Positions 780 to 63,412 are shown, numbered from the stretch's first letter. The stretch: 64,000 nt of DNA from a virus (IMGVR_UViG_3300044835_000075:1-64000); one strand, 5' to 3'. Notes: generated from the letters alone by a model not told the origin. Translations and numbers: made by a program.

Positions 780-809
780 AGTATAGCCGCGCTAGCGGCG
801 GTTAATCAA
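780..809 (-). promoter_or_regulatory. Promoter/operator repeat, class A
   Basis: TTGATT AACCG-N9-CGGC TATACT. Confidence 0.7.
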
Positions 810-2209
810 TCGTCCCAGAGGGAGAACTCCGCGCGCGGCCCCGGCACTGCCGGAGTCGCCACATCGTCGTCCTCGAAGTTCTCCGCGTCGTCGCCGTCCG
901 GCCCGTCGTCCGCACGCCGCAACTCCCCCGCGCCGACCATCGTCCAGTCCACGTCATCGACCAACGCCTGCTCGTAGGCGTCGTCCTCGTCGTTCGGGTC
1001 GTCACTGCCGTCGTCGTCGGCACCCGAGTCGTCGTCGGAGCCCAGGAACGTGCTCAGCGAGTCGTCGTCGATCGAGTCGATGTCGGAGTCCGGATCCGCC
1101 ATGAGCATCGCGGCCTTGAACTCCTCGGCGGAGATCGTCAGCGCCTTGTGCGCGTTCTTCCCCGGCCACACGCCGGTGGCGAGCTTGTGGATGTTCGCGG
1201 TCAGGCCGTCGAGGATGTGCGGGTCCTGGACGAACTTGGCGAGATGCCTGCGCAGCCGCTTGAAGTCCCCCGGCGTGCCCGGCCGCCACTTCGCCGCACC
1301 CTTGCCGTGCGCCCAGTACTCGCGCAGCTTCGCGGCGTTCGGGCTCGGGCTCATGATCTTCTGCTCGATGGCCTTTTTGATCTCGAACTCAGTCAGCCCG
1401 GCGTGCTTCTTCTCCGGCGCCGCCGCGTTCCAGTCCTTCGGGAGCATGTTCGTCGCCTTGAGCCGCTTCGCGGCCGCGTTGATCACCGTCTTGCGCGCGG
1501 CCTTGTCGGCGGCCGGGACCTTCGCGAACGCCTTGATGGCAGCCGCCAGATCGCCAATGCTCTTGATCGTGTCGCCGTCGGTCGCGCCCTGCGGAGGACC
1601 GCCCTTGGCGCCCTTCTTCGGGCCCTTCTTCGCGAAGTGCGCGGCCAGACCGGCGGGCATCTTGCCCTTCGTCTCACCGTCGTCCTCGCCGTCACCGTCC
1701 CCGGAGTCGTCGACATCACCGTCGGCCGCGCCGAACGGGAAGTCGTACACCTGCTCGGGGAACTCCAGGCGCAGCCGGTCGAATGTCACCGGCCCCACCT
1801 TGGCGAGCTTGTCTGCCGACAGGCCGAACCCGGCCGTCATGTGCGGGAAGTACGGCTCATGCTGCGGTTCGTCACAGCACTGGTCGAAATGCTGCTGCAA
1901 CGCCGTGAGCAGGCCGGTGCCGCCGACCAGGTACACCGCGCACGGCTTGCGGTCGGCGAAACCGTCCGGGTTGAACGTCGCCGTGGCGAACAGCCGGGCG
2001 TCTATCGGCCCGAAATGACTCGCCACGTTCGCGACCTCGGCCGCCAGCAGGTTCCGCTGCGATGCCGTCATACCGCTGACGTCGTCGCCCAGGAACGCCA
2101 GGGTGACATGCAGCTCGGTGGGATCGTCGCCGCCGTCGACCGCGTACGTCTGTGCATCCTCCGCGCGCGGGATGAGTGCGATCATGCCGCCGTTCTGCTC
2201 GTCTGCCAT
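806..2209 (-). CDS. 2H phosphoesterase (2'-5' RNA ligase/Acb1-like) N-terminal domain fused to helical domains and an acidic tail
   Basis: Two HxT motifs (ELHVTLAFLG, YFPHMTAG); C-terminal LREYWAHGKGAAKWRPGTPGDF segment; lies inside the head module. Confidence 0.75.
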   Translation of the reverse strand: MADEQNGGMIALIPRAEDAQTYAVDGGDDPTELHVTLAFLGDDVSGMTASQRNLLAAEVANVASHFGPIDARLFATATFNPDGFADRKPCAVYLVGGTGLLTALQQHFDQCCDEPQHEPYFPHMTAGFGLSADKLAKVGPVTFDRLRLEFPEQVYDFPFGAADGDVDDSGDGDGEDDGETKGKMPAGLAAHFAKKGPKKGAKGGPPQGATDGDTIKSIGDLAAAIKAFAKVPAADKAARKTVINAAAKRLKATNMLPKDWNAAAPEKKHAGLTEFEIKKAIEQKIMSPSPNAAKLREYWAHGKGAAKWRPGTPGDFKRLRRHLAKFVQDPHILDGLTANIHKLATGVWPGKNAHKALTISAEEFKAAMLMADPDSDIDSIDDDSLSTFLGSDDDSGADDDGSDDPNDEDDAYEQALVDDVDWTMVGAGELRRADDGPDGDDAENFEDDDVATPAVPGPRAEFSLWDD

Positions 2210-2380
2210 GCCGCACATCGTTGCAGGAGAGAGCCCCTGCGGGCGGCTGACACGCGCAGCCGGTTTGACCTGGCGCGAATACGCACGCTAAGGTCAGGGC
2301 CTCTTCTCGATCGTGTGTCGAAGAAGCGGAACCGGCCAAACCCTCGCACCCCGTGCGGGGGTTTCGTCGTTGTGGGGCAC

Positions 2381-4659
2381 CTATGCCACCACCTGTGCAC
2401 TCACCGTGCCCGCGCCGACGCCGAGCAGCTCGAACGTCGTCCCGGCCGCCAGCACGATCGCGCCCCCGGCCACTCCGATCGCCACCCCCGCCGGAATCAG
2501 CACCGTAAGCACCACGGCCGCGTCCGACGGAATCGCCAGCCCCAGCACCGGCGTCCCCGGCATCGAGATCGACTGACCGGGCAGCGCCGCCAGCGGTGCG
2601 GTCAACGCGCGGTAGGCGATGATCGGCTGCTTGAGCGTCACCAGCGACGCCACCGGCGGCAGTCCATACCCATCCGGGGTAGGGGTAAGGGTCTCGCCCA
2701 TCGAGCGAGCCGCCGACTTCGCCACGGCCGCCGTGAGCATGTCGAGCGTCCTGCCGGGAGCGCCGGAGTCGGTGCGCGCGGACTCGGCCATCTCGTTCAT
2801 CCTGCGGGCCGCGTCGCCCGGCTTGCGGAACAGCAGTCCGCACCGGCAGTTTTTTGTAGGTATACTGTTCGCTAAGAACATCCCCGCCGTCGTCTGGAGC
2901 GTGTACACGTGGCCCCTAAACGCCTTCCTCTCGATCTTGACCACGCGGTCAAGCTCTACAACTCCGGCCAGCCTCTCCGTGAGGTCGCCTCTCATTTCGG
3001 CATGAGCCAAACCACCCTTTTCCTGAGATTTCGTGAAGCCGAAGTCCCTATGCGCATCGGATCGCAGAAGATCCTGCCCCTTCGCGTCTCGATTGATGCC
3101 GAGGAAGTCGCCACTCGTTACCGGAACGGCGAGAGCGAGAAGGCTCTCAGCGAAGCGCTCGGGGTCGACCGGTCCACCATCCGAACCCGCCTTGAGCGCA
3201 GCGGCATACAGCCACGCGGGCGCTCGGAATCCTTGCTTTTGCGTTGGTCCCGGCTCGATGTCGCCGAACGTGAGGCACTCGTTGTCGCTGCCCACATCGC
3301 CGGTCGCGGACGAATCGCCAGCACCGAAGAACTGACCCGCCGGGCTCAGTCCCGCGCCTCGCTCGACTGCTTCACCTCGCCCTGGGAAGTCGTTCTTGCT
3401 GACCTGCTCGCCGACCGAGGCGTGACGGCCGATCCGCAACGCGCTGTCCACCACTACAATGTCGACCTGGCCTGCTGGCCGGTCGCCGTGGAAATTCACC
3501 GCGACCCCGGGCATCCCCTGAACCGGCGCGCGCGTCGCCAGCGCATCGTGGACCTGCTCGATCGTGGCTGGCTTCCCCTCTACGTCTGGCTCAACCCGCG
3601 CACCAGCGCCGTGACCAACGCGTGTGCCGATCACGTAGTCGAACTCATTCAGCTCGCCCAACGTGACCCAGCCGCGTTCGGTGAGTACCGGGTGATTCGG
3701 GGTACCGGTGAGGCTGCGTCCCTGCGCAGTGCGAAGGGTCACGACCTGTCCGACATACGGCGCACGAAATGAACCTTCGACGTCGGGCCCTGCAACCTCC
3801 GTCTCCGGCACAAAGCAGTTCGCGACCTCGCCCCACGACGCGGGTAGATCCGCCGGATCGCCGGGGTGCTTGAGCTGGAACTTGCCGACCGTGAACGTCT
3901 CCCCCACCGGCCGCACCTGCCCGTCGGCGACCACGTGGGTGTGCCGGACGCGGTCGTCCCGCTTTGAGAGCCATTGAGTGTGGGTCACGCCGAGCCGCAC
4001 GGCGGTGCGCAGGGCGGCGTCGTTGACCAGCGCGTTGCCGAGTGTCCGCCCGGCCATCAGAAGCCAATTGCCCCCCCTGTCGTGCGCGGCCTTGATGTTG
4101 TCGAGCACCTCGTCGAGGTCTTCGGCGGTCTTGTCGGAGTCGAGCACGGCCGCCCGGACGACCTTGGCGTGCGCGTCGGCGACCCCGAGGATCCGGCTGA
4201 TGACGTCCTCGACGGCTGCGGTGAGGTCTCCCATGTCGAACGCGGTGAGGTCGGAGCCGCCACCCAGGTTGGACGATGTCTCTTTCGCCGCCTCGGTGGC
4301 GATCCGGAGCACGACGGGGCGGATCTCCTCGCGCAACTCCGCTTCGAGTTTGTCCGGCACCACGTAGGCCGGGTCCAGCGCTTTGAGTTCGCGGGTGAGT
4401 ACGGCCGTGCCGCCGCCCTTGGTCTCGACCTGGTCCCACCACCGGGTGTGCTTGCGCGCCTTGGGGCCCTTGACGCGGGCGGTGACGACGGCCAGCGAGC
4501 GCTGCAAGTAGCTGTCGAGTACGGCGGTGAGGGCGTCCTCGGCGCGCCGGGCGCGGGCGTCTACCGCGTTGACGAGCCGCTGGCGGTCGGGCCCGGGGGC
4601 GGGGCTGGGCGAGGCCTCGGCAATCGTGAGTTGCGGCGTGGCCAGCGGCGGGAAGTCAT
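2381..4659 (-). CDS. MuF/SPP1 gp7-like minor head protein containing an intein; ATG 4659 is one base out of frame with the body (open frame 2381-4507+)
   Basis: QWLSKRDDRVRHTH..DGQ..F.VG..L.HPGDP..EVAN|CRC motif after intein removal; directly downstream of portal. Confidence 0.85.
2849..3817 (-). mobile_element. Intein (323 aa) inserted in the MuF N|CRC motif
   Basis: Block A CFVPETEV, block B LTGTPNHPVLTERGW, block F VVKIERKAFRGHVYTLQT, block G FLANSIPTKN followed by Cys+1. Confidence 0.9.
2909..3772 (+). CDS. HTH-HTH + Vsr/DUF559-like PD-(D/E)xK endonuclease, nested antisense within the intein (putative homing endonuclease)
   Basis: Two HTH repeats (LYNSGQPLREVASHFGMSQTTL; RYRNGESEKALSEALGVDRSTIRTRL), then SPWE..L..Q..YNVDLA..VAVEIH..H..L.DRGW..L.VW; GGAG 9 nt before GTG. 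Confidence 0.8.
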   Translation: MAPKRLPLDLDHAVKLYNSGQPLREVASHFGMSQTTLFLRFREAEVPMRIGSQKILPLRVSIDAEEVATRYRNGESEKALSEALGVDRSTIRTRLERSGIQPRGRSESLLLRWSRLDVAEREALVVAAHIAGRGRIASTEELTRRAQSRASLDCFTSPWEVVLADLLADRGVTADPQRAVHHYNVDLACWPVAVEIHRDPGHPLNRRARRQRIVDLLDRGWLPLYVWLNPRTSAVTNACADHVVELIQLAQRDPAAFGEYRVIRGTGEAASLRSAKGHDLSDIRRTK

Positions 4660-6549: not shown

Positions 6550-6598
6550 CGGGTGGTTCGCCTTTCGTCGGAGCTGCCTGGCGCGGCTCGATGGGAAA

Positions 6599-6628
6599 AA
6601 ACTAGCCGACTTGGTAATGGCTTGTCAA
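6599..6628 (-). promoter_or_regulatory. Promoter/operator repeat, class A
   Basis: TTGACA AGCCA-N9-CGGC TAGTTT. Confidence 0.75.
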
Positions 6629-8914: not shown

Positions 8915-10969
8915 ATGTCCAAGCCCGAGATCAACTTGTGGGAGGTGCTCTACCGCAAGCGGCTCGGCCTCGGCCCCTTCTACGTCGGGGTCGGTGCCGC
9001 CGCGCTTGCGGGGCTCTCCTCCCTGCTCGGCGACGTCGAAACGATCATCGCCGTCGTGGCGGTAGCTCTCGCGCTCGGCGCTTGGGCACACACCCGCGTG
9101 AAGGACGGCCTGCGCCGTGGCTACGCCTTCACCGTCATCGGCTCGTCGGCGCTCTGGATCATCGTCGCCCACCTGTACTCGACCAGCCTGCTCTCCGCCC
9201 TGATCGTGGCGAACCTGTCCGCCACGCTCGTGCTGGGCATCGGCTGGTGGACCTCGCACCGCCAGCGTGCCCAGGTCCGCATGGCCGAGGCGCTCAAGGA
9301 CTGGCCGGAGCTGGTCAAGCGGATCAACTACGACAAGATCCCCGCGCCGGGTGTCACCATCTCCCCCATCGGCTACGGCGGCAAGCTCAAGTGGGCGCCG
9401 GGCGAGTACGACGTCGCCGACATCATCCGGGACAAGGGCAAGTTCGAGAACATGCTGGGCGCCGACCACGGCCAGATGCGGATGGAGCGCGACGGCAAGT
9501 CGACGAACTCGGTGAAGTTCCAGGTCATCACCAACGACCCGCACTCGCTGGCGCAGGACTGGGCGCCGCCGACGTCGGTCGTCCAGGCGACGGACCCGCT
9601 GGCGATCGGTCCGCGTGAGGACGGGATCGTCGCGACGATCCGCCGATTCGAGCGCAACTCCGGTGTCCGGCACGCCCTGATCGCGGGAGCCACGGAGTCG
9701 GGCAAGTCGAGCCTGGTCAACCTCATGGTCGCCACGGACGTCTGCTCGGATGAGGTGTTCCAGATCGGGTTCGACTTCAAGCAGGTCGAGTTGACCCCGT
9801 GGGAGCGGGCGATGGGGTTCGTGATCACCAAGGTCCCCAGCGCTGTGGAGATGGTGCGCGGGTTCGCCGCGCCGGGCGGCTTGCTGGAGACGCGGGGCGA
9901 CATCCTCGCGGAGCGTGGCCGCCGGGAAGGCAAGGGTGTCCGGATATGGGACACGAAGAAAGACGGCCCGATCATTTCCATTGTCGTCGACGAGGCGAAG
10001 GATTTGCTTGGAACGACTGATTCCAAGACGGTTGATGCCTTTGCCTTGATCGCGACAAAGGGTCGCGCGCTGGGTGTCCGTTTCGTTATCGCTACGCAAT
10101 TCCCGACGCTTGAGGCTATCGGTTCTTCGCAGATCCGCCAGCAGGTCCGGCACCGGTTCTGCTTCCGGATGCAGGACTCGGCCGGGGAGAGCTTCGTGAT
10201 GCCGGGGCACCGCGTGCGGGCCGAGGCGATCGACGCGGAGCGCAAGGGCACGTGCTACATGCTCGACGGCGACCGGCTGGAGTCGATGCCGATCCGGGTC
10301 TACTGGATCGACGACGACATGGTCGCCGCCGTCGTCGCGGCCCGCGCGGGCCGGACGCCGGAACTCGACGCGCGCAGCGCCGAGGCGATCGAGCTGTACT
10401 TCCCGGATTTCGCGAACCGCATGGTGCGCATCCCGGAGCCGACCGGGACGAGTACCGGGACTGACGGCGGGACCGGGACCGGGACTAGTCCCGGGACTGA
10501 TGACGGCGGGACCGGGACTAGTCCCGGGACGACCGGGACCGACGTCGGGACTGTCCCGGCCGGTGATGAGGAGGGCGACGCGATGGCCGGGACTGGCGAC
10601 GAGTGGGTCGACTTGAACAAGGGCCCGCAGGTGGAGATCGAGGACGTCATGGCGTCCCGGGACTCGCACCTGACCGAAGAGGAGCGGGAGCGGCTGGAGC
10701 GGGACCGGCGGGTGGCGTTGGCCGAGGTCCCGGGACAGCGGTTGAACGAGGAGCAGGCCCGGGACGCGTTGATCCGGGCGCTGGAGGCGGCGGGACCGGA
10801 GGGCGCGAAGGCGAAGGATCTTCAGGTTGCGGCTGACCGCTCGTCGAGCTGGTTCTACAAGGTCGCGGCGCAGATGGCCGAGGACGGAATCGTGAAGCGG
10901 ACGACGCGAGGCAAGTGGATGATCCTCAAGCCGAAACTGTCGTTGGTGACTACCGCACCGAAGGGGTAG
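8915..10969 (+). CDS. traB: FtsK/SpoIIIE-family conjugal DNA translocase (Streptomyces TraB type)
   Basis: N-terminal TMs, Walker A GATESGKS, Walker B IVVDEA, KGRALGVRFVIATQ, C-terminal wHTH (SSSWFYK..GIVKR..GKW). Confidence 0.85.
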   Translation: MSKPEINLWEVLYRKRLGLGPFYVGVGAAALAGLSSLLGDVETIIAVVAVALALGAWAHTRVKDGLRRGYAFTVIGSSALWIIVAHLYSTSLLSALIVANLSATLVLGIGWWTSHRQRAQVRMAEALKDWPELVKRINYDKIPAPGVTISPIGYGGKLKWAPGEYDVADIIRDKGKFENMLGADHGQMRMERDGKSTNSVKFQVITNDPHSLAQDWAPPTSVVQATDPLAIGPREDGIVATIRRFERNSGVRHALIAGATESGKSSLVNLMVATDVCSDEVFQIGFDFKQVELTPWERAMGFVITKVPSAVEMVRGFAAPGGLLETRGDILAERGRREGKGVRIWDTKKDGPIISIVVDEAKDLLGTTDSKTVDAFALIATKGRALGVRFVIATQFPTLEAIGSSQIRQQVRHRFCFRMQDSAGESFVMPGHRVRAEAIDAERKGTCYMLDGDRLESMPIRVYWIDDDMVAAVVAARAGRTPELDARSAEAIELYFPDFANRMVRIPEPTGTSTGTDGGTGTGTSPGTDDGGTGTSPGTTGTDVGTVPAGDEEGDAMAGTGDEWVDLNKGPQVEIEDVMASRDSHLTEEERERLERDRRVALAEVPGQRLNEEQARDALIRALEAAGPEGAKAKDLQVAADRSSSWFYKVAAQMAEDGIVKRTTRGKWMILKPKLSLVTTAPKG
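10441..10800 (+). repeat. Cluster of about 12 CCGGGAC repeats inside the traB linker
   Basis: e.g. gaccgggaccgggactagtcccgggac; encodes GTGTSPGT. Confidence 0.8.
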
Positions 10970-12341: not shown

Positions 12342-12387
12342 GACGGGGTCTCCTCGGTTCGATTTGGTCGGTTGCGGAACTAGGGAT

Positions 12388-12417
12388 AGACTAGCCGACG
12401 TATAGCCGGTTAGTCAA
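12388..12417 (-). promoter_or_regulatory. Promoter/operator repeat, class A
   Basis: TTGACT AACCG-N9-CGGC TAGTCT. Confidence 0.8.
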
Positions 12418-12449: not shown

Positions 12450-13307
12450 ATGATGGGACACGACCACGCCCGGTCAGGAGTACCGGCCGCCTGCGTCGCC
12501 GTACTGGTGGCGCGCGCGTTCGGCGAGGATCTGTCGGTGTTCATGATCGCGCTCAGCATCGTGCTCACCTGCGGCGCCGCACTGCTGCCCGATCTCGACC
12601 ACCCGTCCGCCACGGCCGCCCACACGTTCGGCCCGATCACGCGCGGCATCGCCGAGGTGCTCAACGGGTTCGGCGAATGGCTGTACTACCGGACGCGGTC
12701 GAACGCGGACAAGCCGCACATCAAGGACGGGCACCGGACGTTCAGCCACACCGTCGTCTTCGCTCTCCTGGCGGGGGTTTTCGTGGCCCTGGCTTGCTCT
12801 CTCGGCGGCAAATGGGCGCTTCTGGTGACCCTGTTCATCCTGGCGTCGCTGGCCCTGCGCGGCGCGGCAGGGCACCACGGGCACGGCCGACGGCGGCACC
12901 GTCTTCTGCCGCGTCTTCCACGCGGCCCGATCGGCATTTCGTTCGCCGCCGCCGCACTGAGCGCGGCCGCGTACTTCCTCATGCCGACCACGGTCAACGG
13001 CGTGTTCATCGGCATCTGCGTCGCGGTCGGCTGCATCACGCACGACCTCGGGGACGCGTGCACCCTGTACGGCGATCCGCTGTTCTGGCCGCTCCCGATC
13101 AAGGGGCAGCGCTGGTACCTGGTCGGCACGCCGCGTGCTCTTCGGTTCCGCACCGGCAACGGGCCGGAGCACGTCGGCGAGCGGCGGTTCCGGGTGCTGC
13201 TCAACATCGTCACGGTGATCCTGCTCGTGACGCTGGCGCCGGGGTCGTGGACGTGGCTGTTCGAGGTGGGGCAGCGCGGTTGGTCGACGGTTGTGGCGTT
13301 GGTCTAG
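12450..13307 (+). CDS. YdjM-like membrane metal-dependent hydrolase
   Basis: MMGHDH, ALLPDLDHP, HRTFSH, HDLGD..T..G.PLFWP motifs. Confidence 0.8.
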   Translation: MMGHDHARSGVPAACVAVLVARAFGEDLSVFMIALSIVLTCGAALLPDLDHPSATAAHTFGPITRGIAEVLNGFGEWLYYRTRSNADKPHIKDGHRTFSHTVVFALLAGVFVALACSLGGKWALLVTLFILASLALRGAAGHHGHGRRRHRLLPRLPRGPIGISFAAAALSAAAYFLMPTTVNGVFIGICVAVGCITHDLGDACTLYGDPLFWPLPIKGQRWYLVGTPRALRFRTGNGPEHVGERRFRVLLNIVTVILLVTLAPGSWTWLFEVGQRGWSTVVALV

Positions 13308-13728: not shown

Positions 13729-13836
13729 GGTCGCTTGCGGTACCTCTAAAAGATAGCCTGTTCGGGAGCGGCTTGTCAACCCCCGAGCAGCAGAAAACCC
13801 CCGCCGGGTTTCGGCGAGGGCATTTCTGCTGGTCAG
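13729..13836 (-). repeat. 108-bp stop-terminator-promoter-leader unit, copy 1
   Basis: About 8 mismatches to 14633-14740. Confidence 0.9.
13750..13779 (-). promoter_or_regulatory. Promoter/operator repeat, class A
   Basis: TTGACA AGCCG-N9-AGGC TATCTT. Confidence 0.8.
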
Positions 13837-14632: not shown

Positions 14633-14740
14633 GGTCGCTTGCGGTACCTCTAAAAGATAGCCTGTCCGGGAGCGGCTTGTCAACCCCTGGGCAGAAGAAA
14701 GCCCCCGCCGGGTTCCGGCGAGGGCGTCTCTGCTGGTCAG
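14633..14740 (-). repeat. 108-bp stop-terminator-promoter-leader unit, copy 2
   Basis: Near-identical to 13729-13836. Confidence 0.9.
14654..14683 (-). promoter_or_regulatory. Promoter/operator repeat, class A
   Basis: TTGACA AGCCG-N9-AGGC TATCTT. Confidence 0.8.
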
Positions 14741-15433: not shown

Positions 15434-15438
15434 GAGAT

Positions 15439-15468
15439 AAGTAAACCGCGATGACAGCGGCTTGTCAA
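15439..15468 (-). promoter_or_regulatory. Promoter/operator repeat, class B
   Basis: TTGACA AGCCG-N9-CGGTT TACTT. Confidence 0.8.
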
Positions 15469-15772: not shown

Positions 15773-15808
15773 GGGTTTCTCCTCTGCGCTCGTCGTGCGG
15801 AACATGGA

Positions 15809-15838
15809 TAGCTAACCATGCTGAGCGCGGCTTGTCAA
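15809..15838 (-). promoter_or_regulatory. Promoter/operator repeat, class B
   Basis: TTGACA AGCCG-N9-TGGTT AGCTA. Confidence 0.8.
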
Positions 15839-16457: not shown

Positions 16458-16492
16458 CGCGGGCTCCTCGGGTTGTCGATGCGGAACAACCT

Positions 16493-16522
16493 AAGTAAAC
16501 CATTCTGAGAGCGGCTAGTCAA
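16493..16522 (-). promoter_or_regulatory. Promoter/operator repeat, class B
   Basis: TTGACT AGCCG-N9-TGGTT TACTT. Confidence 0.8.
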
Positions 16523-16608: not shown

Positions 16609-17076
16609 ATGAGCTCACTTCGGGACGCCAGCGGCAACGTCCTCAACAAGACCCAGCTGCTGGCGCTGATGACGGCCCAGACGGCCCAGACGGTCTACAC
16701 CGCGAACGCCAACGTCGACCAGCGCTTCACCTACGACGGCGGCGCGTTTGAAGACGGCGACCGGTCGCTGTTCTACGCCGGTCAGACGGGCATCACGCAG
16801 GCCTTCATCGACGGCCTCTTCCTGACGGCGACCGCCGACGCCATCGCCCCCGCGACCGGCCTCGCCGCCGGTGGCACGAACGTCGTCATCACCGGTACGA
16901 ACCTCGCCGGTTCGGCGGGCGTCACGTTCGGCGGCGTCGCGGCGACCAACTTCGTGGTCACCTCGAACACCACCATCACGTGCACCGCCCCCGCGCACGC
17001 GGCCGGTGCCGTCTCCGTGGTCGTCAAGGACGACGCGGGCGACATCACCAAGGCGGCCTTCTATACCTACACCTGA
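16609..17076 (+). CDS. IPT/TIG (Ig-like) domain protein, possibly virion-associated
   Basis: IAPATGLAAGGTNVVITGTNL..VTFGG..SNTTITCTAPAHAAGAVSVVV..FYTY. Confidence 0.8.
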   Translation: MSSLRDASGNVLNKTQLLALMTAQTAQTVYTANANVDQRFTYDGGAFEDGDRSLFYAGQTGITQAFIDGLFLTATADAIAPATGLAAGGTNVVITGTNLAGSAGVTFGGVAATNFVVTSNTTITCTAPAHAAGAVSVVVKDDAGDITKAAFYTYT

Positions 17077-17713: not shown

Positions 17714-18445
17714 CTAGCGCAGGACGTTGATGCGGAACGGCGGCTCACCTTCGGCGAGGGTGCCCGGGGCGACCGGATACGGGTGGTTGGGATCGCTGGC
17801 CGGGAACACGAAATGCTCCCCGTCGCGGAACTGGTACGCGCCGGTGGCGTACTTCCCCGCGCCGACATGGCCGGTGACGACTTCGCCCCACACCGTTTTG
17901 TCGGCGTAGCGGGCGGTCATCAGCTGGCCGACGGCCCAGCGGCCGCCGGGGCCGTCGATGTCGATCGCGCGCCTGTCGTGCGGGTAGGCGAACCGGATCA
18001 CCCAGCCCTTCTCGTCGGCGGCGTCGCGCACGACGCGGGACTCGTCCTCGGTGAGCGGGAAGTACCGCAGGGTGGACTTGTAGGGCACATCGTTTCCTCT
18101 CTGTGCGAGCTGGTCGAGGTGGGCGTTTTCGATCGCGCGGATCGCCGCACCGTGAACCGGGCAGCCGTAGCGCGCGCGCCACATCAGGCAGGTGCAGCGG
18201 GGGTCGCGCGGGTAGCCGAATGCCGGGGTGATCAGTTCGTACGGACGGCACGTCTTGCACTGCGAAGTACGGCGATCGGGGGCGCCGATGCCGGTGATCC
18301 GCTGCGCCTCTTCCAGGCTGATGGGCAGCGAGTGCTTCGCGTGTCCGGCGTGGACGCAGGTGACGAGGTGGATCATGCGCCGGGTCGTGATGGACCCGAC
18401 GCATGATCCACTGTCGCGCACGACGTGGACGACGAACGCGCTCAC
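17714..18445 (-). CDS. Hypothetical Cys/His-containing protein
   Basis: GTGA overlap with whiB stop. Confidence 0.55.
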   Translation of the reverse strand: MSAFVVHVVRDSGSCVGSITTRRMIHLVTCVHAGHAKHSLPISLEEAQRITGIGAPDRRTSQCKTCRPYELITPAFGYPRDPRCTCLMWRARYGCPVHGAAIRAIENAHLDQLAQRGNDVPYKSTLRYFPLTEDESRVVRDAADEKGWVIRFAYPHDRRAIDIDGPGGRWAVGQLMTARYADKTVWGEVVTGHVGAGKYATGAYQFRDGEHFVFPASDPNHPYPVAPGTLAEGEPPFRINVLR

Positions 18446-18735
18446 GGGTGTGTGCGCTTGCGCTTGAGGGCGCGCCGCTCGTCCTCGTCCATGCCGCCCC
18501 AGACTCCGGCGTCCTGGCCGGTGTCGAGGGCCCACTTGCGGCAGTCTTCGAGCACCGGGCAGCCCTGGCAGACGCTCTTGGCCAGCGCGGTTTGCGCCAG
18601 CGCGGGGCCGGAGATGCCGACGGGGAAGAACAGCTCGGGGTCCTCGGTGGCGCAGGCGGCGTCGAAGCGCCAGTCGGCGGGGCGGGTGACGTCGGCGAGC
18701 ACGTCGCCGAGCAGTTCGTGGGTGGACGTGGACAT
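18442..18735 (-). CDS. whiB: WhiB-family Fe-S transcription factor (WhiB1-like)
   Basis: WR..AAC..EDPELFFPVG..AK.VC..CPV...C..WAL..GQDAGVWGGMDEDERRAL. Confidence 0.95.
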   Translation of the reverse strand: MSTSTHELLGDVLADVTRPADWRFDAACATEDPELFFPVGISGPALAQTALAKSVCQGCPVLEDCRKWALDTGQDAGVWGGMDEDERRALKRKRTHP

Positions 18736-19019: not shown

Positions 19020-19053
19020 CGTGATCTCCTCGGGGTCGCTTGCGGAACATGAT

Positions 19054-19083
19054 TAGCAAACCATGTACCGGGCGGCTTGTCAA
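19054..19083 (-). promoter_or_regulatory. Promoter/operator repeat, class B
   Basis: TTGACA AGCCG-N9-TGGTT TGCTA. Confidence 0.8.
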
Positions 19084-20565: not shown

Positions 20566-20601
20566 CTCGATCTCCCTGGTGTCTCTCTTGCGGAACACCA
20601 T

Positions 20602-20631
20602 TAGCTAACCATGCTGACAGCGGCTTGTCAA
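20602..20631 (-). promoter_or_regulatory. Promoter/operator repeat, class B
   Basis: TTGACA AGCCG-N9-TGGTT AGCTA. Confidence 0.8.
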
Positions 20632-20873: not shown

Positions 20874-20901
20874 GGGCGCGTCCCTTCCTTGTTCGTACCG
20901 T

Positions 20902-20931
20902 AAGTAAACCAGTGTCGGCGCGGCTAGTCAA
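20902..20931 (-). promoter_or_regulatory. Promoter/operator repeat, class B (divergent pair)
   Basis: TTGACT AGCCG-N9-TGGTT TACTT. Confidence 0.8.
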
Positions 20932-20946: not shown

Positions 20947-20976
20947 TTGACAAGCCTCGCTGGCCATGGTTAGCTA
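20947..20976 (+). promoter_or_regulatory. Promoter/operator repeat, class B (divergent pair)
   Basis: TTGACA AGCCT-N9-TGGTT AGCTA. Confidence 0.8.
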
Positions 20977-21010
20977 TCCATGTTCCGCACCGATACCCCG
21001 AGGAGACCCC

Positions 21011-21469: not shown

Positions 21470-21499
21470 TTGACAAGCCGCGCTCATAGCGGCTATCTT
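21470..21499 (+). promoter_or_regulatory. Promoter/operator repeat, class A
   Basis: TTGACA AGCCG-N9-CGGC TATCTT. Confidence 0.8.
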
Positions 21500-21545
21500 T
21501 CAGAGGTACCGCAAGCGACCCACCCACCACCTCCCGGAGGTCACC

Positions 21546-21967: not shown

Positions 21968-22456
21968 TTGCCCGCCAAGACGATTTACCCCTGCCCCGAA
22001 TGCGAGACCGGAGACTGCGTCTGCGGCGTCGGCTGCGCGGACTGCGGCTACACCCGGATGTGCTCGAACTGCGCGGGCACCGGCGACGTCGAGATCCCGG
22101 TTATGGTCCCGAAGCAGCCGAAGGCGCCCGGGATCACGTTCAACGTCCCGTCCGACCTCGTGGACCGGCGGGGCGGCGGCAAGCCTCGCAAGCATCCCCG
22201 CTGCGTCGAGTGCAACCGGTTCATCTCGGCCCGTCCGGACAGGGATCCGATGGCGCTCATGACGATCGAAGAGCGGCACAAGCATGTCGGCGGAGACCCG
22301 CGCCAGCGGCACCTGCCGCGCTGCTCGGGGTGCGCCAGGCCGTTCCGCCTGATGGTGTCGGAGCACGCGCGGCAGGCTCGTACGCGCGGCGCGGTGCAGC
22401 TCTGGTCGTACTACAGCAACGGCAAGACCAGTGTGCGCACCATGAGCCGTAATTGA
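21968..22456 (+). CDS. Cys-rich zinc-finger-like protein
   Basis: Multiple CxxC; SD GAGGAG before TTG. Confidence 0.6.
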   Translation: MPAKTIYPCPECETGDCVCGVGCADCGYTRMCSNCAGTGDVEIPVMVPKQPKAPGITFNVPSDLVDRRGGGKPRKHPRCVECNRFISARPDRDPMALMTIEERHKHVGGDPRQRHLPRCSGCARPFRLMVSEHARQARTRGAVQLWSYYSNGKTSVRTMSRN

Positions 22457-22482
22457 CAAGCCGCTTTGAGAGTGGTTCACTT
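22453..22482 (+). promoter_or_regulatory. Promoter/operator repeat, class B
   Basis: TTGACA AGCCG-N9-TGGTT CACTT. Confidence 0.8.
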
Positions 22483-22519
22483 ATCTAGTACGACGTTCCG
22501 CACGACCGAGAGGCACACC

Positions 22520-23554: not shown

Positions 23555-23695
23555 ATGTCGGTAATCAAGGACGCGATCGACGCGGCCAAGGAACTCACGA
23601 AGTTGACCGTTCGGGACTTCCGGGAGACGCAGCCGCGAAGTCCTGGATCGGCCCGGAAGCTCGAAGGCACCAAGGCGCCTCGCCGGAAGGCGTAG
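23555..23695 (+). CDS. 46-aa basic microprotein
   Basis: SD AAGGAG; terminator at 23704-23740 follows. Confidence 0.55.
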   Translation: MSVIKDAIDAAKELTKLTVRDFRETQPRSPGSARKLEGTKAPRRKA

Positions 23696-23753
23696 TCGGA
23701 CGCGAAAAGCCCCCGCCGAAGAATCCGGCGGGGGCTTTTCTGTCGTGTGTGGA

Positions 23754-23942
23754 CTAGTGGAAAATGCCCCAGGTCTGAATCCAGCCGACGAACTTGTTCA
23801 GATTGGTGGTGATCCACACACCGGCGGGCGTTGCAGCGCAGAGAATACCGGCGACGAACACCACGGCGCCGGTGATCCATTCCTTGTTGCGGACGGTGAG
23901 GATGATCGCCGCGACGATGGCAATCAGTGCGAGAGGAACCAT
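23754..23942 (-). CDS. Small membrane protein
   Basis: Two hydrophobic segments; SD GGAG. Confidence 0.55.
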   Translation of the reverse strand: MVPLALIAIVAAIILTVRNKEWITGAVVFVAGILCAATPAGVWITTNLNKFVGWIQTWGIFH

Positions 23943-24104
23943 GCTGGTCGTTGTCTCCAAAGGTCGAGGGGTAGGCGGAACCTGACTGAGTGTAGCCGGT
24001 CCGGGCCCGGTGATCAAAATGACCCCTCGACCTGCGGTTCTCTTTGTGATCCGGCCCCAGCGCGGCTAGTATAGAGGCAAGCCTCACCGACCACAGGAGA
24101 CTCA

Positions 24105-24545
24105 GTGACCACGGAAACCGACTACGCCACGGGCATCCAGTCCCGCATCCGGGCGGCGCTCAAAGACGTCGCCGACGAGGTGGCCGTCAAGAGCACCCGC
24201 ATCGCCATCGCCGTTCCGGGCCAGGAGATCGCCGCCGCCATGTGGAAGATCTTCAACGACGTTCCCCACATTCCCGACTACGACCCCGAGAACGGCAAGC
24301 GCACCTGGTCGTCCGCCGTCGAGTTCGCCAGCGACGAGATCCCTGAGGACCCGGCGGAGGTCAGCGTGCGCGCGACCACCGGCGATCTCTACGAGCAGCG
24401 GGTCACCATCACCCTCAAGACCGCCGACGGCGTCCATGAGGTCGAACTGGACCGAGCGCAGGCCGAGGAATTCTTCCTCACCGGGTTGTCCGCGACCACG
24501 TTCCTACTCTCCCTCGGGGGACGCGGCGCACCCGAAGTTGACTAA
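24105..24545 (+). CDS. Hypothetical protein
   Basis: SD AGGAG; degenerate promoter copy (CGGC-TAGTAT) at about 24044-24072. Confidence 0.65.
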   Translation: MTTETDYATGIQSRIRAALKDVADEVAVKSTRIAIAVPGQEIAAAMWKIFNDVPHIPDYDPENGKRTWSSAVEFASDEIPEDPAEVSVRATTGDLYEQRVTITLKTADGVHEVELDRAQAEEFFLTGLSATTFLLSLGGRGAPEVD

Positions 24546-24567
24546 CCACGCCGGTATCGGCTATTCT
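24538..24567 (+). promoter_or_regulatory. Promoter/operator repeat, class A, upstream of tandem-HTH gene
   Basis: TTGACT AACCA-N9-CGGC TATTCT. Confidence 0.75.
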
Positions 24568-24602
24568 TTCCAGTAAGGCGCATCCCGCGCACACGAAAGG
24601 AA

Positions 24603-25187
24603 GTGAACACCCAGATGAAGAGCCGAGCACGATGGGCAGAAGACGCCATCGACCTGAGCACCAACCTCGCCAAGGCCGCCGAGCAACTCCACATCGGGAT
24701 GCTTGCCGACAAGACCGGCCTGAGCGTCCGCACGATCGAGGACTCCCTCACCCGGGAGAAGATCACCGCACCCGACAACCCGCGCGGCGCGCTCGACCGG
24801 CCCGCCTACATGGTCGGCGGCGACCCGCTGTGGAGCCACGAACAGCTGACCGAGTACTACCGGCGGATGTCCGCCACCGCCGACCGCAAGGACGTCAAGG
24901 TCGACCTCCCGCTCGTCACTCCCGAGGAGGCGCGTGAGCGCGGCCTCGTGACCACCAGCGCCGTCGGCAAGCTGCTCAAGGTCCACGACCAGACCGTCCG
25001 CCGGTGGGAGGCCAACTACCAGAACTACCCGCCCAAGGTCGCCCGCCAGTCCCGCAACGGCCTGCCCGGCGTGCCGGAGCACATCCGCGAACTGGCGAAG
25101 ATCATCGAGTGGGCCATCGCGCGCAACGAAGAGCGGCGCGGAACCGACGTGCCGCTGATCGAGATCCCGGCCGACGCGACCGCATGA
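24603..25187 (+). CDS. Tandem MerR/excisionase-type winged-HTH DNA-binding protein
   Basis: LHIGMLADKTGLSVRTI..PLWSHEQL and VTTSAVGKLLKVHDQTVRRW..IIEW. Confidence 0.65.
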   Translation: MNTQMKSRARWAEDAIDLSTNLAKAAEQLHIGMLADKTGLSVRTIEDSLTREKITAPDNPRGALDRPAYMVGGDPLWSHEQLTEYYRRMSATADRKDVKVDLPLVTPEEARERGLVTTSAVGKLLKVHDQTVRRWEANYQNYPPKVARQSRNGLPGVPEHIRELAKIIEWAIARNEERRGTDVPLIEIPADATA

Positions 25188-26094: not shown

Positions 26095-26124
26095 TTGACA
26101 AGCCGCTGCCAGAGAGGCTATCTT
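26095..26124 (+). promoter_or_regulatory. Promoter/operator repeat, class A
   Basis: TTGACA AGCCG-N9-AGGC TATCTT. Confidence 0.8.
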
Positions 26125-26162
26125 TCAGAGGTACCGCAAGCGACCAGCCCGAGGAGATCCCC

Positions 26163-27596: not shown

Positions 27597-27626
27597 TTGA
27601 CAAGCCGCTCTGAACGTGGTTAGCTA
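27597..27626 (+). promoter_or_regulatory. Promoter/operator repeat, class B
   Basis: TTGACA AGCCG-N9-TGGTT AGCTA. Confidence 0.8.
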
Positions 27627-27668
27627 TCCATGTTCCGCACGACGACACGAACCCGAAGGGCCCCCGCC

Positions 27669-32820: not shown

Positions 32821-32848
32821 ACGTGGTTCCCGGAGAAAGGGGCACGCG

Positions 32849-33056: not shown

Positions 33057-33347
33057 GTGAGCAAATCCCTGGCGTACACCAAAAACCGGCACCTCGTGCT
33101 CCGCAAACTCGCCAATGAGGGTGCGACCCTGCAACGCAACGGCGCGCTTGAGCCGAGCTGGCTCGACCGCAAAATGAGCTTCCACAACAAGAACTTCACC
33201 AACACCGCGCACGACCTCGAAGTCGCCGGACTGCTGGTCTTCCCGCAGCGTGCGATGTACGGGCTGAGCCTCGGCAAGCCGAAGCTCTCCGAGGCCGGTT
33301 CGGCGCTGCTGGCGAAGTGGGACGCTGCCCGACCGTTAGTTGACTAG
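33057..33347 (+). CDS. Hypothetical protein (possible wHTH)
   Basis: SD AAGGA; LEVAGLL..LSEAG. Confidence 0.55.
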   Translation: MSKSLAYTKNRHLVLRKLANEGATLQRNGALEPSWLDRKMSFHNKNFTNTAHDLEVAGLLVFPQRAMYGLSLGKPKLSEAGSALLAKWDAARPLVD

Positions 33348-33369
33348 CCGCGCCCAGCGTGGTTTAATT
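33340..33369 (+). promoter_or_regulatory. Promoter/operator repeat, class B
   Basis: TTGACT AGCCG-N9-TGGTT TAATT. Confidence 0.8.
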
Positions 33370-33374
33370 ACCGA

Positions 33375-34608: not shown

Positions 34609-34638
34609 TTGACAATCCGCCCTCACAATGGTTAGATA
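34609..34638 (+). promoter_or_regulatory. Promoter/operator repeat, class B
   Basis: TTGACA ATCCG-N9-TGGTT AGATA. Confidence 0.75.
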
Positions 34639-34705
34639 ACCGGCGAACCCCCTGTTTCTCCGCCGCGTTCGCGGCCGGAGTTTCCCCGAAAAAAGGACAC
34701 CCGCA

Positions 34706-36086: not shown

Positions 36087-36116
36087 TTGACAAGCCGGGC
36101 CGAGAGTGGTTAGCTA
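36087..36116 (+). promoter_or_regulatory. Promoter/operator repeat, class B
   Basis: TTGACA AGCCG-N9-TGGTT AGCTA. Confidence 0.8.
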
Positions 36117-36121
36117 TCTAC

Positions 36122-36538: not shown

Positions 36539-36960
36539 CAACGAAGCCGCTCACGCGCCACTTCACCGGCTGCCCGGTCTGCGCGCTCCACATCCCGCTC
36601 ACCAAATCCAGCCGGTGGCCGAAGCACTTCCTCGGACACGGCACCGACGTCCACGTCCGGCAGAAATGGGGCAACGTCTGCCCCGCGTCCGGCAAGACCG
36701 ACACCGAAGTCGACGACCTGCTGCGCACCTTCGACAGCTGCGACGACCTGAGCACCGGCATCAAGGGCGAGAGCTACCAGCGCACCGTGACAATCCACGA
36801 CACCGGCGACGAACTCACCCTCGTGTCGTCGATGTTCATCGGAAGCATCGACGTCGGCGGTCAACTCGTATCCCGCGTGGCCGTGCGCATCGACGCGCAA
36901 GACACCTACCGCCTGATCTCGGAACTGACCCGCGTTGCGGAAAAGAGGGGCCTGCTATGA
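36535..36960 (+). CDS. Hypothetical protein, paralog B
   Basis: TGCPVC..CPASG..VDDLLRTF. Confidence 0.7.
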   Translation: MTTKPLTRHFTGCPVCALHIPLTKSSRWPKHFLGHGTDVHVRQKWGNVCPASGKTDTEVDDLLRTFDSCDDLSTGIKGESYQRTVTIHDTGDELTLVSSMFIGSIDVGGQLVSRVAVRIDAQDTYRLISELTRVAEKRGLL

Positions 36961-37526
36961 CCCGCCAGACCACCCGCCCACTGCGCGAGTACAGCATGAA
37001 CGTGCTCGCCGGAGTCCCCTACGAGATCGTCAACTCGATGCGCGAGTTCCTCATCCTCGACCCGCCCTACCAGCGCGGCACCGTGTGGACCGAAGACCAG
37101 CGCATCGCCCTGGTCAAGTCGTGGCTGATGGGCACGCCGATCCAGGCCGTCATCATGAACGACCGGCGGCGGCAGGCGTGGACCGGCGAGGCGCCGGGAC
37201 TCGACCACATCGCCGTCATCGACGGCAAGCAGCGGATCGAGACCGCCATCGCCTGGTTCGACGGCCAGCTCGCCGTACCGGCATCCTGGTTCGACGCCGA
37301 ATGGTATGAGTCCACCGTGGACACCGACGACGGCCCATACCTGACGTACGACAACCTCACCCCGGCGGGCAAGCGGTTCTGCAAGTTCCAGTGGAAGCTG
37401 CCCCGCATCGAAACCGAGCTGGGCACGGAAGCCGACGAGGCCGAGCTGTACCTGCTCGTCAACGGCGGCGGCACCGCACAGACAGCGGCCGACATGGCGA
37501 ACGCGGCAAGGGTGGCAGGACGATGA
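36957..37526 (+). CDS. Stand-alone DUF262 (ParB/Srx-fold) protein
   Basis: PPYQRGTVW..LVKS..G.PI..VIDGKQR..LVNGGG. Confidence 0.8.
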   Translation: MTRQTTRPLREYSMNVLAGVPYEIVNSMREFLILDPPYQRGTVWTEDQRIALVKSWLMGTPIQAVIMNDRRRQAWTGEAPGLDHIAVIDGKQRIETAIAWFDGQLAVPASWFDAEWYESTVDTDDGPYLTYDNLTPAGKRFCKFQWKLPRIETELGTEADEAELYLLVNGGGTAQTAADMANAARVAGR

Positions 37527-38966: not shown

Positions 38967-38996
38967 TTGACAAGCCGCTGCCAGCGTGGTTGACTA
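38967..38996 (+). promoter_or_regulatory. Promoter/operator repeat, class B
   Basis: TTGACA AGCCG-N9-TGGTT GACTA. Confidence 0.8.
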
Positions 38997-39033
38997 ATGG
39001 TGTTCCGCCCGAAGAGCACCGAGAGGACACCAC

Positions 39034-40486: not shown

Positions 40487-40870
40487 GTGGAAAGGGTTGC
40501 TGTGGAACGAAATGAGACGTTCGACATCCTGGCCGGGCAGGTCGGGCGGGACGTGAAACTGACGGATGCGCTGGGTGCGACGATGCGCGGCGTGCTGCTG
40601 TACGTGTCGGCGCCAGGCTGGGATGGCCGGGTTGGTGCCTCGATCGAGGGTCCGCAGGTGGAGGTGATGTTCGGCGCGTCGGTGGCGGGTTCGGCTGGCC
40701 GCCGGTCGGGGCCGGTGGCTGACGCGGTGTCGGCCAGCGATTGGCGGATGACGCTGAGCACCGACGGCGGCGAGTTCGAGGATGTGGAGGGGTTGCAGGG
40801 GTCGTCGAACCACGGGCGGACGTGGTTCTCCGTGGCGGTCCCTCCGCAGATAGTTGACAAGCCGCTCTGA
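40487..40870 (+). CDS. Hypothetical protein
   Basis: Open frame between hairpin and next promoter; start uncertain. Confidence 0.45.
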   Translation: MERVAVERNETFDILAGQVGRDVKLTDALGATMRGVLLYVSAPGWDGRVGASIEGPQVEVMFGASVAGSAGRRSGPVADAVSASDWRMTLSTDGGEFEDVEGLQGSSNHGRTWFSVAVPPQIVDKPL

Positions 40871-40883
40871 GCGTGGTTGACTA
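40854..40883 (+). promoter_or_regulatory. Promoter/operator repeat, class B
   Basis: TTGACA AGCCG-N9-TGGTT GACTA. Confidence 0.8.
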
Positions 40884-40919
40884 ACGGTGTTTCGCACGAG
40901 AGACACCGAGGAGAACCCC

Positions 40920-41334: not shown

Positions 41335-41610
41335 GTGGAACTCAAGTCGATCACGTTCACCAAGGACGAGCAGGACGGCGACGTCGTGCCCGAATCCGCC
41401 GTCTTCGAGCTGACCATCCAGGAGATCGCCTACCTCGCGACCCTGCTCGGCCAGCAGACCGGCATCACCGCCAGTGCCGTCATGCCCGGCGGCGACGGCG
41501 TCAACTCCAGCATCTGGAACTCGCTCAACGGCGATGTCATCAACCGCTACTACGACGACGGCATCGACGACTGGAAGCTCGCCAAGTTCCTCACGCGCGC
41601 CGATAGTTGA
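41335..41610 (+). CDS. Hypothetical protein
   Basis: SD AAGGA. Confidence 0.6.
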   Translation: MELKSITFTKDEQDGDVVPESAVFELTIQEIAYLATLLGQQTGITASAVMPGGDGVNSSIWNSLNGDVINRYYDDGIDDWKLAKFLTRADS

Positions 41611-41636
41611 CAAGCCGCTCCCGGCATGGTTAGCTA
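41607..41636 (+). promoter_or_regulatory. Promoter/operator repeat, class B
   Basis: TTGACA AGCCG-N9-TGGTT AGCTA. Confidence 0.8.
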
Positions 41637-41669
41637 TCCATGTACCGCGCACAACACGAGGAGCCCGCC

Positions 41670-44813: not shown

Positions 44814-44845
44814 GGTGTCCTCCGGGTTGCTGGGCGGAACAACGT

Positions 44846-44875
44846 AAGTAAACCACTCTGGGCGCGGCTAGTCAA
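44846..44875 (-). promoter_or_regulatory. Promoter/operator repeat, class B, embedded in perfect hairpin
   Basis: TTGACT AGCCG-N9-TGGTT TACTT. Confidence 0.8.
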
Positions 44876-45994: not shown

Positions 45995-46029
45995 GGTCTT
46001 CTCCTCGGGTTCGTCGGGCGGAACGTAGT

Positions 46030-46059
46030 TAGCTAACCACGCTCCGCCCGGCTTGTCAA
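46030..46059 (-). promoter_or_regulatory. Promoter/operator repeat, class B
   Basis: TTGACA AGCCG-N9-TGGTT AGCTA. Confidence 0.8.
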
Positions 46060-46387: not shown

Positions 46388-46443
46388 GGAATATTCCTCT
46401 CATCGTTGCCCGTCCGCGCGGTGCGGACGGCGCGGGACCCCGA

Positions 46444-46473
46444 TAGTTAACCACGTCGGGCGCGGCTTGCGAA
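46444..46473 (-). promoter_or_regulatory. Promoter/operator repeat with degenerate -35
   Basis: TTCGCA AGCCG-N9-TGGTT AACTA. Confidence 0.65.
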
Positions 46474-48151: not shown

Positions 48152-48185
48152 GGTAACTCCTTCGGGCTGTCGAGCGGAACACCAA

Positions 48186-48215
48186 TAGATAACCATGCTC
48201 AGCGGGGCTTGTCAA
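48186..48215 (-). promoter_or_regulatory. Promoter/operator repeat, class B
   Basis: TTGACA AGCCC-N9-TGGTT ATCTA. Confidence 0.8.
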
Positions 48216-48856: not shown

Positions 48857-48886
48857 TTGACAAGCCGGGGCGGGCATGGTTTACTT
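48857..48886 (+). promoter_or_regulatory. Promoter/operator repeat, class B
   Basis: TTGACA AGCCG-N9-TGGTT TACTT. Confidence 0.8.
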
Positions 48887-48891
48887 ATCTC

Positions 48892-51158: not shown

Positions 51159-51188
51159 TTGACTAGCCGCCGTCATGGTGGTTTACTT
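51159..51188 (+). promoter_or_regulatory. Promoter/operator repeat, class B
   Basis: TTGACT AGCCG-N9-TGGTT TACTT. Confidence 0.8.
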
Positions 51189-51230
51189 ACCATCCTACCC
51201 GTTCCGCATCCCGAGCCCGAAAGGTCCGCA

Positions 51231-51665: not shown

Positions 51666-51695
51666 TTGACAAGCCGGGCTCACGGTGGTTTACTT
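51666..51695 (+). promoter_or_regulatory. Promoter/operator repeat, class B
   Basis: TTGACA AGCCG-N9-TGGTT TACTT. Confidence 0.8.
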
Positions 51696-51700
51696 ACCTC

Positions 51701-53522: not shown

Positions 53523-53552
53523 TTGACAAGCCGCTGCCAGCATGGTTGAATA
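53523..53552 (+). promoter_or_regulatory. Promoter/operator repeat, class B
   Basis: TTGACA AGCCG-N9-TGGTT GAATA. Confidence 0.8.
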
Positions 53553-53586
53553 ATGATGTTCCGCAGACAACCCGAGGAGAACCGCC

Positions 53587-63300: not shown

Positions 63301-63336
63301 GGGCGCGGCCTCCGGGGTGTCGGTGCGGAACATGTT

Positions 63337-63366
63337 TAGTAAACCACGTTCGGCGCGGCTAGTCAA
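63337..63366 (-). promoter_or_regulatory. Promoter/operator repeat, class B (divergent pair)
   Basis: TTGACT AGCCG-N9-TGGTT TACTA. Confidence 0.8.
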
Positions 63367-63382
63367 CTGGGCATCTGGGTGA

Positions 63383-63412
63383 TTGACAAGCCGCGCTCAG
63401 AGTGGTTGACTT
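63383..63412 (+). promoter_or_regulatory. Promoter/operator repeat, class B (divergent pair)
   Basis: TTGACA AGCCG-N9-TGGTT GACTT. Confidence 0.8.

Follow-up and report, generated by a model that had tools for sequence, protein, structure and literature searches.

The first 64,000 nucleotides of the viral record IMGVR_UViG_3300044835_000075 (positions 1–64000, hereafter the window, meaning the whole stretch of DNA analysed) carry a short element that recurs ahead of one gene after another. It consists of a −35 hexamer, TTGAC(A/T), followed immediately by the dyad ARCCR-N9-YGGYT, in which two five-base halves flank nine variable bases (N9). What does this element do? It could be a promoter alone, a promoter with a docking site for a regulatory protein, a structure in nucleic acid, or a joint at which gene cassettes recombine. 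The window is the start of a 107,374-bp IMG/VR virus record (G000; 68% G+C) in which end repeats are absent. We consider it probable, though by no means settled, that the element serves an uncultured actinophage, dependent on the host polymerase, as its standard promoter-plus-leader module, and that its dyad docks one regulator.

The promoter module and its copies

An exact search of the window for TTGACW-ARCCR-N9-YGGYT gives 27 matches, compared with 0.00 in 100 shuffles. A preliminary description of this DNA had counted about 36 copies, 16 on the minus and 20 on the plus strand, spread over positions 780 to 63412; the same numbers were recovered when up to two mismatches were allowed, with the first copy at 779–809 and the last at 63383–63413. 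A copy listed there as degenerate, at about 24044, exists and is one of a divergent pair, 23988–24018 (minus) and 24043–24073 (plus), in which the dyad and a TANNNT −10 hexamer are present and the −35 is absent. The whole 107-kb record holds 45 strict copies, and approximately 47 altogether. The copy lists were anchored on the pattern. Scored with a weight matrix, the best-oriented window copies reached 28–44, and the top score in shuffled genomes was 10.7.

Every copy had been said to point into a gene start, and across the 107-kb genome this is true of every strict copy (45 of 45): 35 by rough gene calls (3.7 expected at random) and the remaining 10 by direct inspection. This includes the prohead protease gene, as proposed; the module beginning at 809 on the minus strand heads the head maturation protease gene at 3–743. 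Abutment of the previous stop codon was likewise observed. Twelve upstream genes in the whole genome end inside or right at the −35, their stop codon being a TAG immediately ahead of it, the TGA contained in TTGAC, or a TAG or TAA at positions 6–8 of the module. In the window, the internal TGA serves as the upstream stop at modules 809, 15838, 22453, and 41607, the TAG/TAA at positions 6–8 at modules 24538 and 33340, and a stop just ahead of the −35 at modules 34609, 38967, 48857, and 51666. With TTGACT, the module gives stops in all three frames (TAG-TTGACTAG).

The idea that one element divides the genome into self-contained cassettes holds in part. A single repeated promoter element does head the units, in two classes that have different −10 regions. 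A hairpin and T-run are found 13–18 nt upstream at approximately 9 of the 45 copies, so about a fifth of the units are insulated; the other copies abut a stop codon or a divergent gene.

The anatomy of the module was derived from 127 distinct copies pooled from G000, three IMG/VR records, and 13 metagenome loci, counting the first T of TTGAC as position 1. Positions 1–6 are the −35 hexamer TTGACW, usually preceded by RG, and positions 7–25 are the two-fold symmetric AGCCG-N9-CGGCT that fills the spacer, with positions 12–20 variable. TTGAC is exact in nearly all 70 class I copies and in most of the 57 class II copies. The −35 is absent from two copies in the window and from approximately 10 in G001, a complete relative (101 kb, with terminal repeats) that has 40 proteins in common with G000 and 65–72% DNA identity to it in core genes. 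In class I, A7, C9, C10, G22, and G23 are each conserved in 70/70 copies and T25 in 69/70, while the same six positions are conserved in 52–57 of the 57 class II copies.

The classes part at the −10. Class II reads CGGC-TANNNT, with the hexamer at positions 25–30 (T25 in 56/57, A26 in 54/57, T30 in 53/57); the spacer is 18 bp long, the −10 is canonical, and a canonical sigma-70 scan detects these copies. Class I, to which 28 of the 38 copies in the window belong, reads TGGTT-n-ACT-w-w, with T24 and T25 essentially invariant. No register of it yields both an A at −11 and a T at −7, and the canonical scan misses all class I copies. Its register is most likely a TG-extended TTNACT at positions 24–29 with a 17-bp spacer and without the −11 A. 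This would place the −10 one base nearer the −35 than in class II, as is suggested by the leaderless genes: the A of their ATG occupies position 36 in class I (11 copies) and position 37 in class II (10 copies). Since these ATGs sit at a fixed position, transcription is predicted to start at about position 36 in class I and 37 in class II, 11–12 nt past the dyad. The ten class II copies of the window all lie within 0.8–26 kb, where they are interspersed with class I copies.

Modules of the window (coordinates and strand)
779–809, minus: class II (TTGATT / AACCG-N9-CGGCT / TATACT); head maturation protease gene 3–743
6598–6628, minus: class II; upstream of a small open reading frame (ORF) and the portal gene
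12387–12417, both strands: 31-bp palindrome read both ways; minus reading class II, ORF from 12341; plus reading (TAGACT...TAGTCA) faces 12450–13307
13749–13779, minus: class II, TATCTT subfamily; terminator hairpin 17 nt upstream
14653–14683, minus: class II, TATCTT subfamily; terminator hairpin upstream
15438–15468, minus: class I; leaderless ATG at position 36 (15433)
15808–15838, minus: class I; upstream gene stop is the TGA inside TTGACA
16492–16522, minus: class I
19053–19083, minus: class I; heads operon with WhiB-like gene
20601–20631, minus: class I; terminator hairpin upstream
20901–20931, minus: class I; back to back with 20947 (plus)
20947–20977, plus: class I, one mismatch
21470–21500, plus: class II, TATCTT subfamily; orthologous gene in loci L203 and L205 has a class I module
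22453–22483, plus: class I
23988–24018, minus: dyad and TACACT −10, no −35; heads ORF (start 23942) of a 62-aa two-helix membrane protein, conserved in G001
24043–24073, plus: dyad and TAGTAT −10, no −35; heads gene 24105–24545
24538–24568, plus: class II, variant left half AACCA; heads candidate regulator gene
26095–26125, plus: class II, TATCTT subfamily; terminator upstream
27597–27627, plus: class I
31487–31517, plus: class I
32791–32821, plus: class I; terminator upstream
33340–33370, plus: class I; leaderless ATG at 33375
34609–34639, plus: class I, one mismatch
36087–36117, plus: class I; leaderless ATG at 36122; terminator upstream
38967–38997, plus: class I; heads UvrD-like helicase gene
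40854–40884, plus: class I
41607–41637, plus: class I
44845–44875, minus: class I; heads operon with large terminase
46029–46059, minus: class I
46443–46473, minus: class I, degenerate −35 (TTCGCA)
48185–48215, minus: class I, one mismatch
48857–48887, plus: class I; leaderless ATG at 48892
51159–51189, plus: class I
51666–51696, plus: class I; leaderless ATG at 51701
53523–53553, plus: class I
63336–63366, minus: class I; heads leftward tail-fibre block
63383–63413, plus: class I; leaderless ATG at 63418

Copies with a leader carry, at the predicted 5′-end of the transcript, the box GTTCCGC (GTACCGC in one subfamily), then, 15–30 nt further on, GAGGAG, and a start codon at +56 to +98. The box, GTTCCGC(A), lies at +36 to +43 (e.g., 15796–15803, minus strand) and is common to both classes and to all relatives. 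It forms no consistent hairpin and has no Rfam match; no Rfam family was matched anywhere in the window. A leader hairpin was considered as a general feature and rejected, as a GTTCCGC stem can be drawn in approximately six copies only and would take in bases upstream of the predicted start.

The copy at 12387–12417 is a single 31-bp palindrome that faces divergent genes on both sides and is kept in G001 (9569–9599) and in locus L210 (2080–2110). Its reverse reading has the −35 TAGACT and the −10 TAGTCA, which is without the T at −7. In G001 the symmetry reaches into the hexamers (TTGACT...AGTCAA).

The dyad and its candidate binder

The dyad is confined to promoters in G000, where 35 of its 37 matches fall in promoters (2.1 expected by chance). 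Conversely, nearly all TTGACN-N16-19-TANNNT sites in G000 and G001 carry at least the right half. The two 5-bp halves of class II are exact reverse complements and are equally conserved, and the class II N9 between them is close to random. The approximately 10 promoters of G001 that have no −35 retain both the dyad and a TANNNT, correctly spaced from a ribosome site or a leaderless ATG. These patterns mark the dyad as a functional unit with a fixed register to the −10.

The simplest reading of these sequence patterns is that the dyad is the site of a sequence-specific protein of two-fold or pseudo-two-fold symmetry, as the preliminary description had suggested; it fits the near-invariant halves and variable N9, and is drawn because base-pair covariation is missing and because the dyad is kept at promoters that have lost the −35. 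The accompanying claim that the halves swap between copies is true in a weak sense. The left half is AGCCG in 101 of 127 copies, and the alternative AACCA (TGGTT on the other strand) occurs 60 times on the −10-proximal side and once on the −35-proximal side.

Which protein could bind the dyad? Two transcription-related genes are common to G000 and G001, and both lie in the window.
18442–18735, minus: gene for a WhiB-like transcription factor; marker of an actinobacterial host, possible partner of host SigA
24603–25187, plus: gene for a 194-aa protein with two MerR/excisionase-type winged-helix domains; candidate dyad-binding protein from fold and conservation, with binding inferred

The second is the best candidate for a dyad binder. 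It gave sub-threshold MerR and helix-turn-helix matches in two places (MerR 25.3 bits, cut-off 28.2) and PHROG matches annotated as ‘DNA binding protein’ and ‘excisionase and transcriptional regulator’. Its structural model (predicted local distance difference test score, pLDDT, 90) is predicted to contain two helix-turn-helix-wing units, with a long helix behind each, and has weak domain-level fold matches (E 0.1–1) to BldC, excisionases, gpNu1, and MerR-family regulators. The protein is conserved in G001, L203, and L205, and homologues at 50–65% identity occur in 24 metagenome clusters, on contigs of up to 135 kb. Its own promoter is class II and has an unusual left half: AACCA here, AGTCG in G001, and AACCG in L203 and L205. 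Its gene adjoins the conserved divergent promoter pair without a −35 (23695–24105).

The phage probably relies on the host RNA polymerase and is probably lytic, since searches of G000 and G001 detected neither a match to sigma region 2 nor an integrase family, and no RNA polymerase was seen among the large proteins checked. A phage sigma factor was considered and rejected, the one match being a weak region 4-like helix-turn-helix (16.7 bits) at 3116–3199, on the strand opposite the intein-bearing MuF-like gene. An actinobacterial host is indicated by the presence of WhiB and DUF732, by leaderless starts, and by GAGGAG ribosome sites, and we infer that a host SigA-type holoenzyme reads the −35 and −10 of the module. 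The 5+5-bp dyad would then dock one sequence-specific protein, either a dimer or a two-domain monomer, which would couple all units to one signal; the protein would be phage-encoded, with the 24603–25187 product as the first to consider. Occlusion of the spacer, and hence shut-off, would be the default expectation for the sign of control. Activation would fit equally well, since the dyad survives where the −35 is lost and class I has a defective −10. A single-regulator regulon, as first proposed, is plausible on this sequence evidence. If the dyad protein were found, it would explain how gene timing is achieved in a large actinophage of lytic type that has neither a polymerase nor a sigma factor of its own. 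In high-GC Actinobacteria, the compact module could find use as a switchable promoter part.

Several observations weigh against this scheme. Whichever register is chosen, class I shows no canonical −10, so that its reading by unmodified SigA is uncertain. The near confinement of TGGTT to the −10-proximal side (60 to 1) suits a promoter role better than an interchangeable half-site, and the half-site centres are 14 bp apart, compared with the usual 10–11 bp of dimers that bind one face. The right half overlaps −16 to −12, where polymerase contact with an extended −10 could explain part of the conservation, and the extension of symmetry into the hexamers in G001 may reflect two-way promoter use and not a protein. 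The candidate itself was chosen by fold and conservation alone, in a screen that covered some of the other small proteins.

Alternative readings and module turnover

Could the dyad act as nucleic-acid structure, either as a hairpin in read-through RNA (a terminator or processing site) or as a DNA cruciform? The two positions that fail to complement each other in class I have G facing T and would form G-U pairs in sense RNA, and the N9 consensus of that class is itself palindromic. However, Watson-Crick pair counts in the inner nine bases match the expectation from shuffled columns, with no excess of complementary pairs at 12–20, 13–19, or 14–18. The 15–17 pair in class I gives a nominal signal only (p = 0.012), with C-A mismatches (14) as common as T-G (9). 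The near-random N9 of class II also speaks against pairing, as does the predicted start of the module's own transcript, which lies downstream of the dyad. The hairpin was dropped for want of covariation, and we regard a structural role as highly improbable. Somewhat more can be said for the absence of any separate regulator, an option that we still consider unlikely: the host holoenzyme would read the spacer itself, perhaps aided by RbpA, CarD, or the phage WhiB-like protein on sigma region 4, or the bases would be kept by recent copying of modules. A G at −14 is a known extended −10 position in Actinobacteria; the right half overlaps this region, and its TGGTT form gives a perfect TGn in the 24–29 register. 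Copying does happen, as module subfamilies are 85–92% identical over 52–114 bp, and the WhiB-like gene is conserved in both G000 and G001. The left half (−30 to −26) nevertheless corresponds to no known polymerase contact, yet it varies as little as the right half, of which it is the exact reverse complement, a coincidence expected by chance approximately once in 1000. Moreover, N9 has diverged and the flanks have not, across phages with few genes in common, which argues for selection on the flanks and not for recent copying. In a further and rather improbable variant, class I would depend on a phage protein bound at the dyad, with or without the help of the phage WhiB-like factor on sigma region 4; unmodified SigA would not suffice, and class II would form a host-only early set. 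Ten genes that are common with class-I-bearing relatives and absent from G001 were searched with Pfam for a class-I-specific factor, and no DNA-binding domain was found among them. If this view of class I were true, the module would represent a reprogramming of the actinobacterial polymerase, similar to sigma appropriation, that tolerates a missing −11 A.

The preliminary description also took the repeats to be recombination joints for the gain, loss, and inversion of genes. The modules are the sole dispersed repeats of the genome (40–114 bp), the genes behind them are not paralogues, and they head unrelated small genes in a region that has few genes in common with relatives. Four near-identical class II modules of the TATCTT subfamily (13.7, 14.6, 21.5, and 26.1 kb; 85–92% identity) precede unrelated genes. 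For two genes headed by this subfamily, the orthologues in L203, L205, and L208 have class I modules and those in G001 another kind of class II module, and the GmrSD-like gene 36957–37526, which is operon-internal here, has its own module in L198 and L208. Whole modules are exchanged at orthologous genes. Together with the stop codons that the module provides in up to three frames, these features would suit repeats that serve mainly to move gene cassettes in, out, and around, in the manner of promoter-early stem-loop (PeSL) repeats. Against this stands the direct comparison, for which genes were called on 13 related metagenome loci and each junction was classed as conserved or as a breakpoint. 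Modules occur at 3 of 13 conserved adjacencies (23%) and at 26 of 79 breakpoints (33%), a difference that is not significant (Fisher p = 0.75) in a comparison of low power, the available relatives (30–75% protein identity) being too distant for a sharp test. The proposed association of modules with breakpoints in gene order or content was therefore not borne out as an enrichment; two thirds of the breakpoints are without a module, and no recombinase was found. We judge it doubtful that recombination is the main role of the repeats. The module is conserved in a group of phages with largely unrelated genes, and the presumed regulon comprises approximately 50 near-identical promoters in two natural variants that differ mainly in −10 bases thought to be indispensable, together with one conserved candidate DNA-binding protein.

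Known systems, relatives, and the phage record

The closest published analogues are PeSL cassettes and the dyad repeats of Cluster O mycobacteriophages. In T4-type phages, PeSL cassettes are repeats of a terminator plus a host-type promoter (PMC2839356, PMC4122927). The modules resemble them as short composite repeats heading small, variable genes in plastic genome regions. They differ in that a stem-loop occurs at just approximately 9 of 45 copies, the symmetric site lies within the promoter spacer and not ahead of the promoter, indel or replacement ends at the motif were tested here with no breakpoint enrichment found, and the host is actinobacterial. Cluster O phages carry more than 30 copies of the 17-bp dyad TGTTCGG-N3-CCGAACA, mostly at gene 5′-ends and of unknown function, mapped apart from 8–9 predicted promoters and with 10 of 34 copies intragenic (PMC4351075). 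The number of copies of one dyad per actinophage genome (more than 30), the location at gene 5′-ends, the predicted SigA-like promoters, and the leaderless starts are all similar. The sequence (AGCCG-N9-CGGCT) and geometry (5-9-5 compared with 7-3-7) are different, and the dyad here is locked into the spacer of every promoter.

The preliminary description had also invoked the stoperators of Cluster A mycobacteriophages. These are reported to be asymmetric 13–14-bp sites of temperate phages with an immunity repressor; they lie mostly off promoters and block elongation (PMC9283540, PMC6550527). The likeness lies in the dozens of copies of one protein site genome-wide and in a repressor with two DNA-binding domains. 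The analogy fails on the defining features of asymmetry, off-promoter copies, and a temperate phage: the site here is symmetric, bipartite, and in promoters (35/37), and the integrase search of G000 and G001 described above was negative.

The promoter architecture also recalls two other systems. MerR-type promoters, such as PcopA with CueR, hold a dyad in a 19–20-bp spacer between the −35 and −10. Here, too, a dyad occupies the whole spacer between the −35 and the −10, and the candidate has winged helices of the MerR/excisionase type. However, the spacer is 17–18 bp, the dyad centre is approximately 3 bp nearer the −10, and the candidate lacks a coiled coil and an effector domain, its MerR matches being sub-threshold. 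T4 middle promoters depend on MotA and AsiA and combine a phage-specific box, beside or replacing the −35, with a host −10. The combination of a phage box and a host −10 is similar, and G001 has dyad-plus-−10 promoters without a −35, but the −35 is kept in most copies here, and we know of no MotA or AsiA relative in this phage. The overall design of the module is familiar in kind; what is new is its sequence and a promoter class without the normally essential −11 A. The class I −10 is the most interesting feature of the module.

A scan of 185,579 genomes for a host regulon gave, per genome, single matches at chance level, and the sole enrichment was one orthologous Micromonospora site. This chromosomal site is intergenic and reads TTGACAAGCCG-N9-TGGTTAGTAT, followed directly by a short hairpin and T-run; it was seen in L141 (6338–6400) and in 13 other loci (L081, L082, L091, and others). 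It had no Rfam match, could be a small RNA or an attenuator, and is at most a clue to the host.

No relative at the DNA level was found among GenBank phages, where the best terminase match is 38% identical, and IMG/VR locus searches seeded with the portal or with the candidate protein gave no match. CheckV estimates G000 to be 96% complete. Its final 146 bp (107229–107374) match positions 1–146 of G002 (L072), a 27-kb IMG/VR fragment, at 99%, and G001 has approximately 20 kb of genes between the homologues of the two ends of G000. The match to G002 and the extra 20 kb in G001 suggest that a block of the genome is probably missing from the G000 record despite the completeness estimate.

The window encodes a portal, a large terminase, an intein-bearing MuF-like head protein, the head maturation protease, and tail proteins, together with helicases, a primase-polymerase, and the WhiB-like factor. 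The MuF-like protein (2381–4507, minus strand) has a sub-threshold intein splicing-domain match. Between its gene and the protease gene lies a gene (806–2218, minus strand) for a 470-aa protein that has PHROG matches to head maturation protease as well as a LigT-like (2′-5′ RNA ligase) domain. An IPT/TIG-domain protein (16609–17076, plus strand) is 66% identical to its homologue in G001, compared with 54% for the portal; its gene is the sole rightward gene in a leftward block and adjoins the WhiB-like gene in relatives. GmrSD is a family of restriction endonucleases for modified DNA, and the protein encoded at 36957–37526 (plus strand), which has a GmrSD N-terminal domain, is among the best conserved accessory gene products, with 65–68% identity in L198 and L208.

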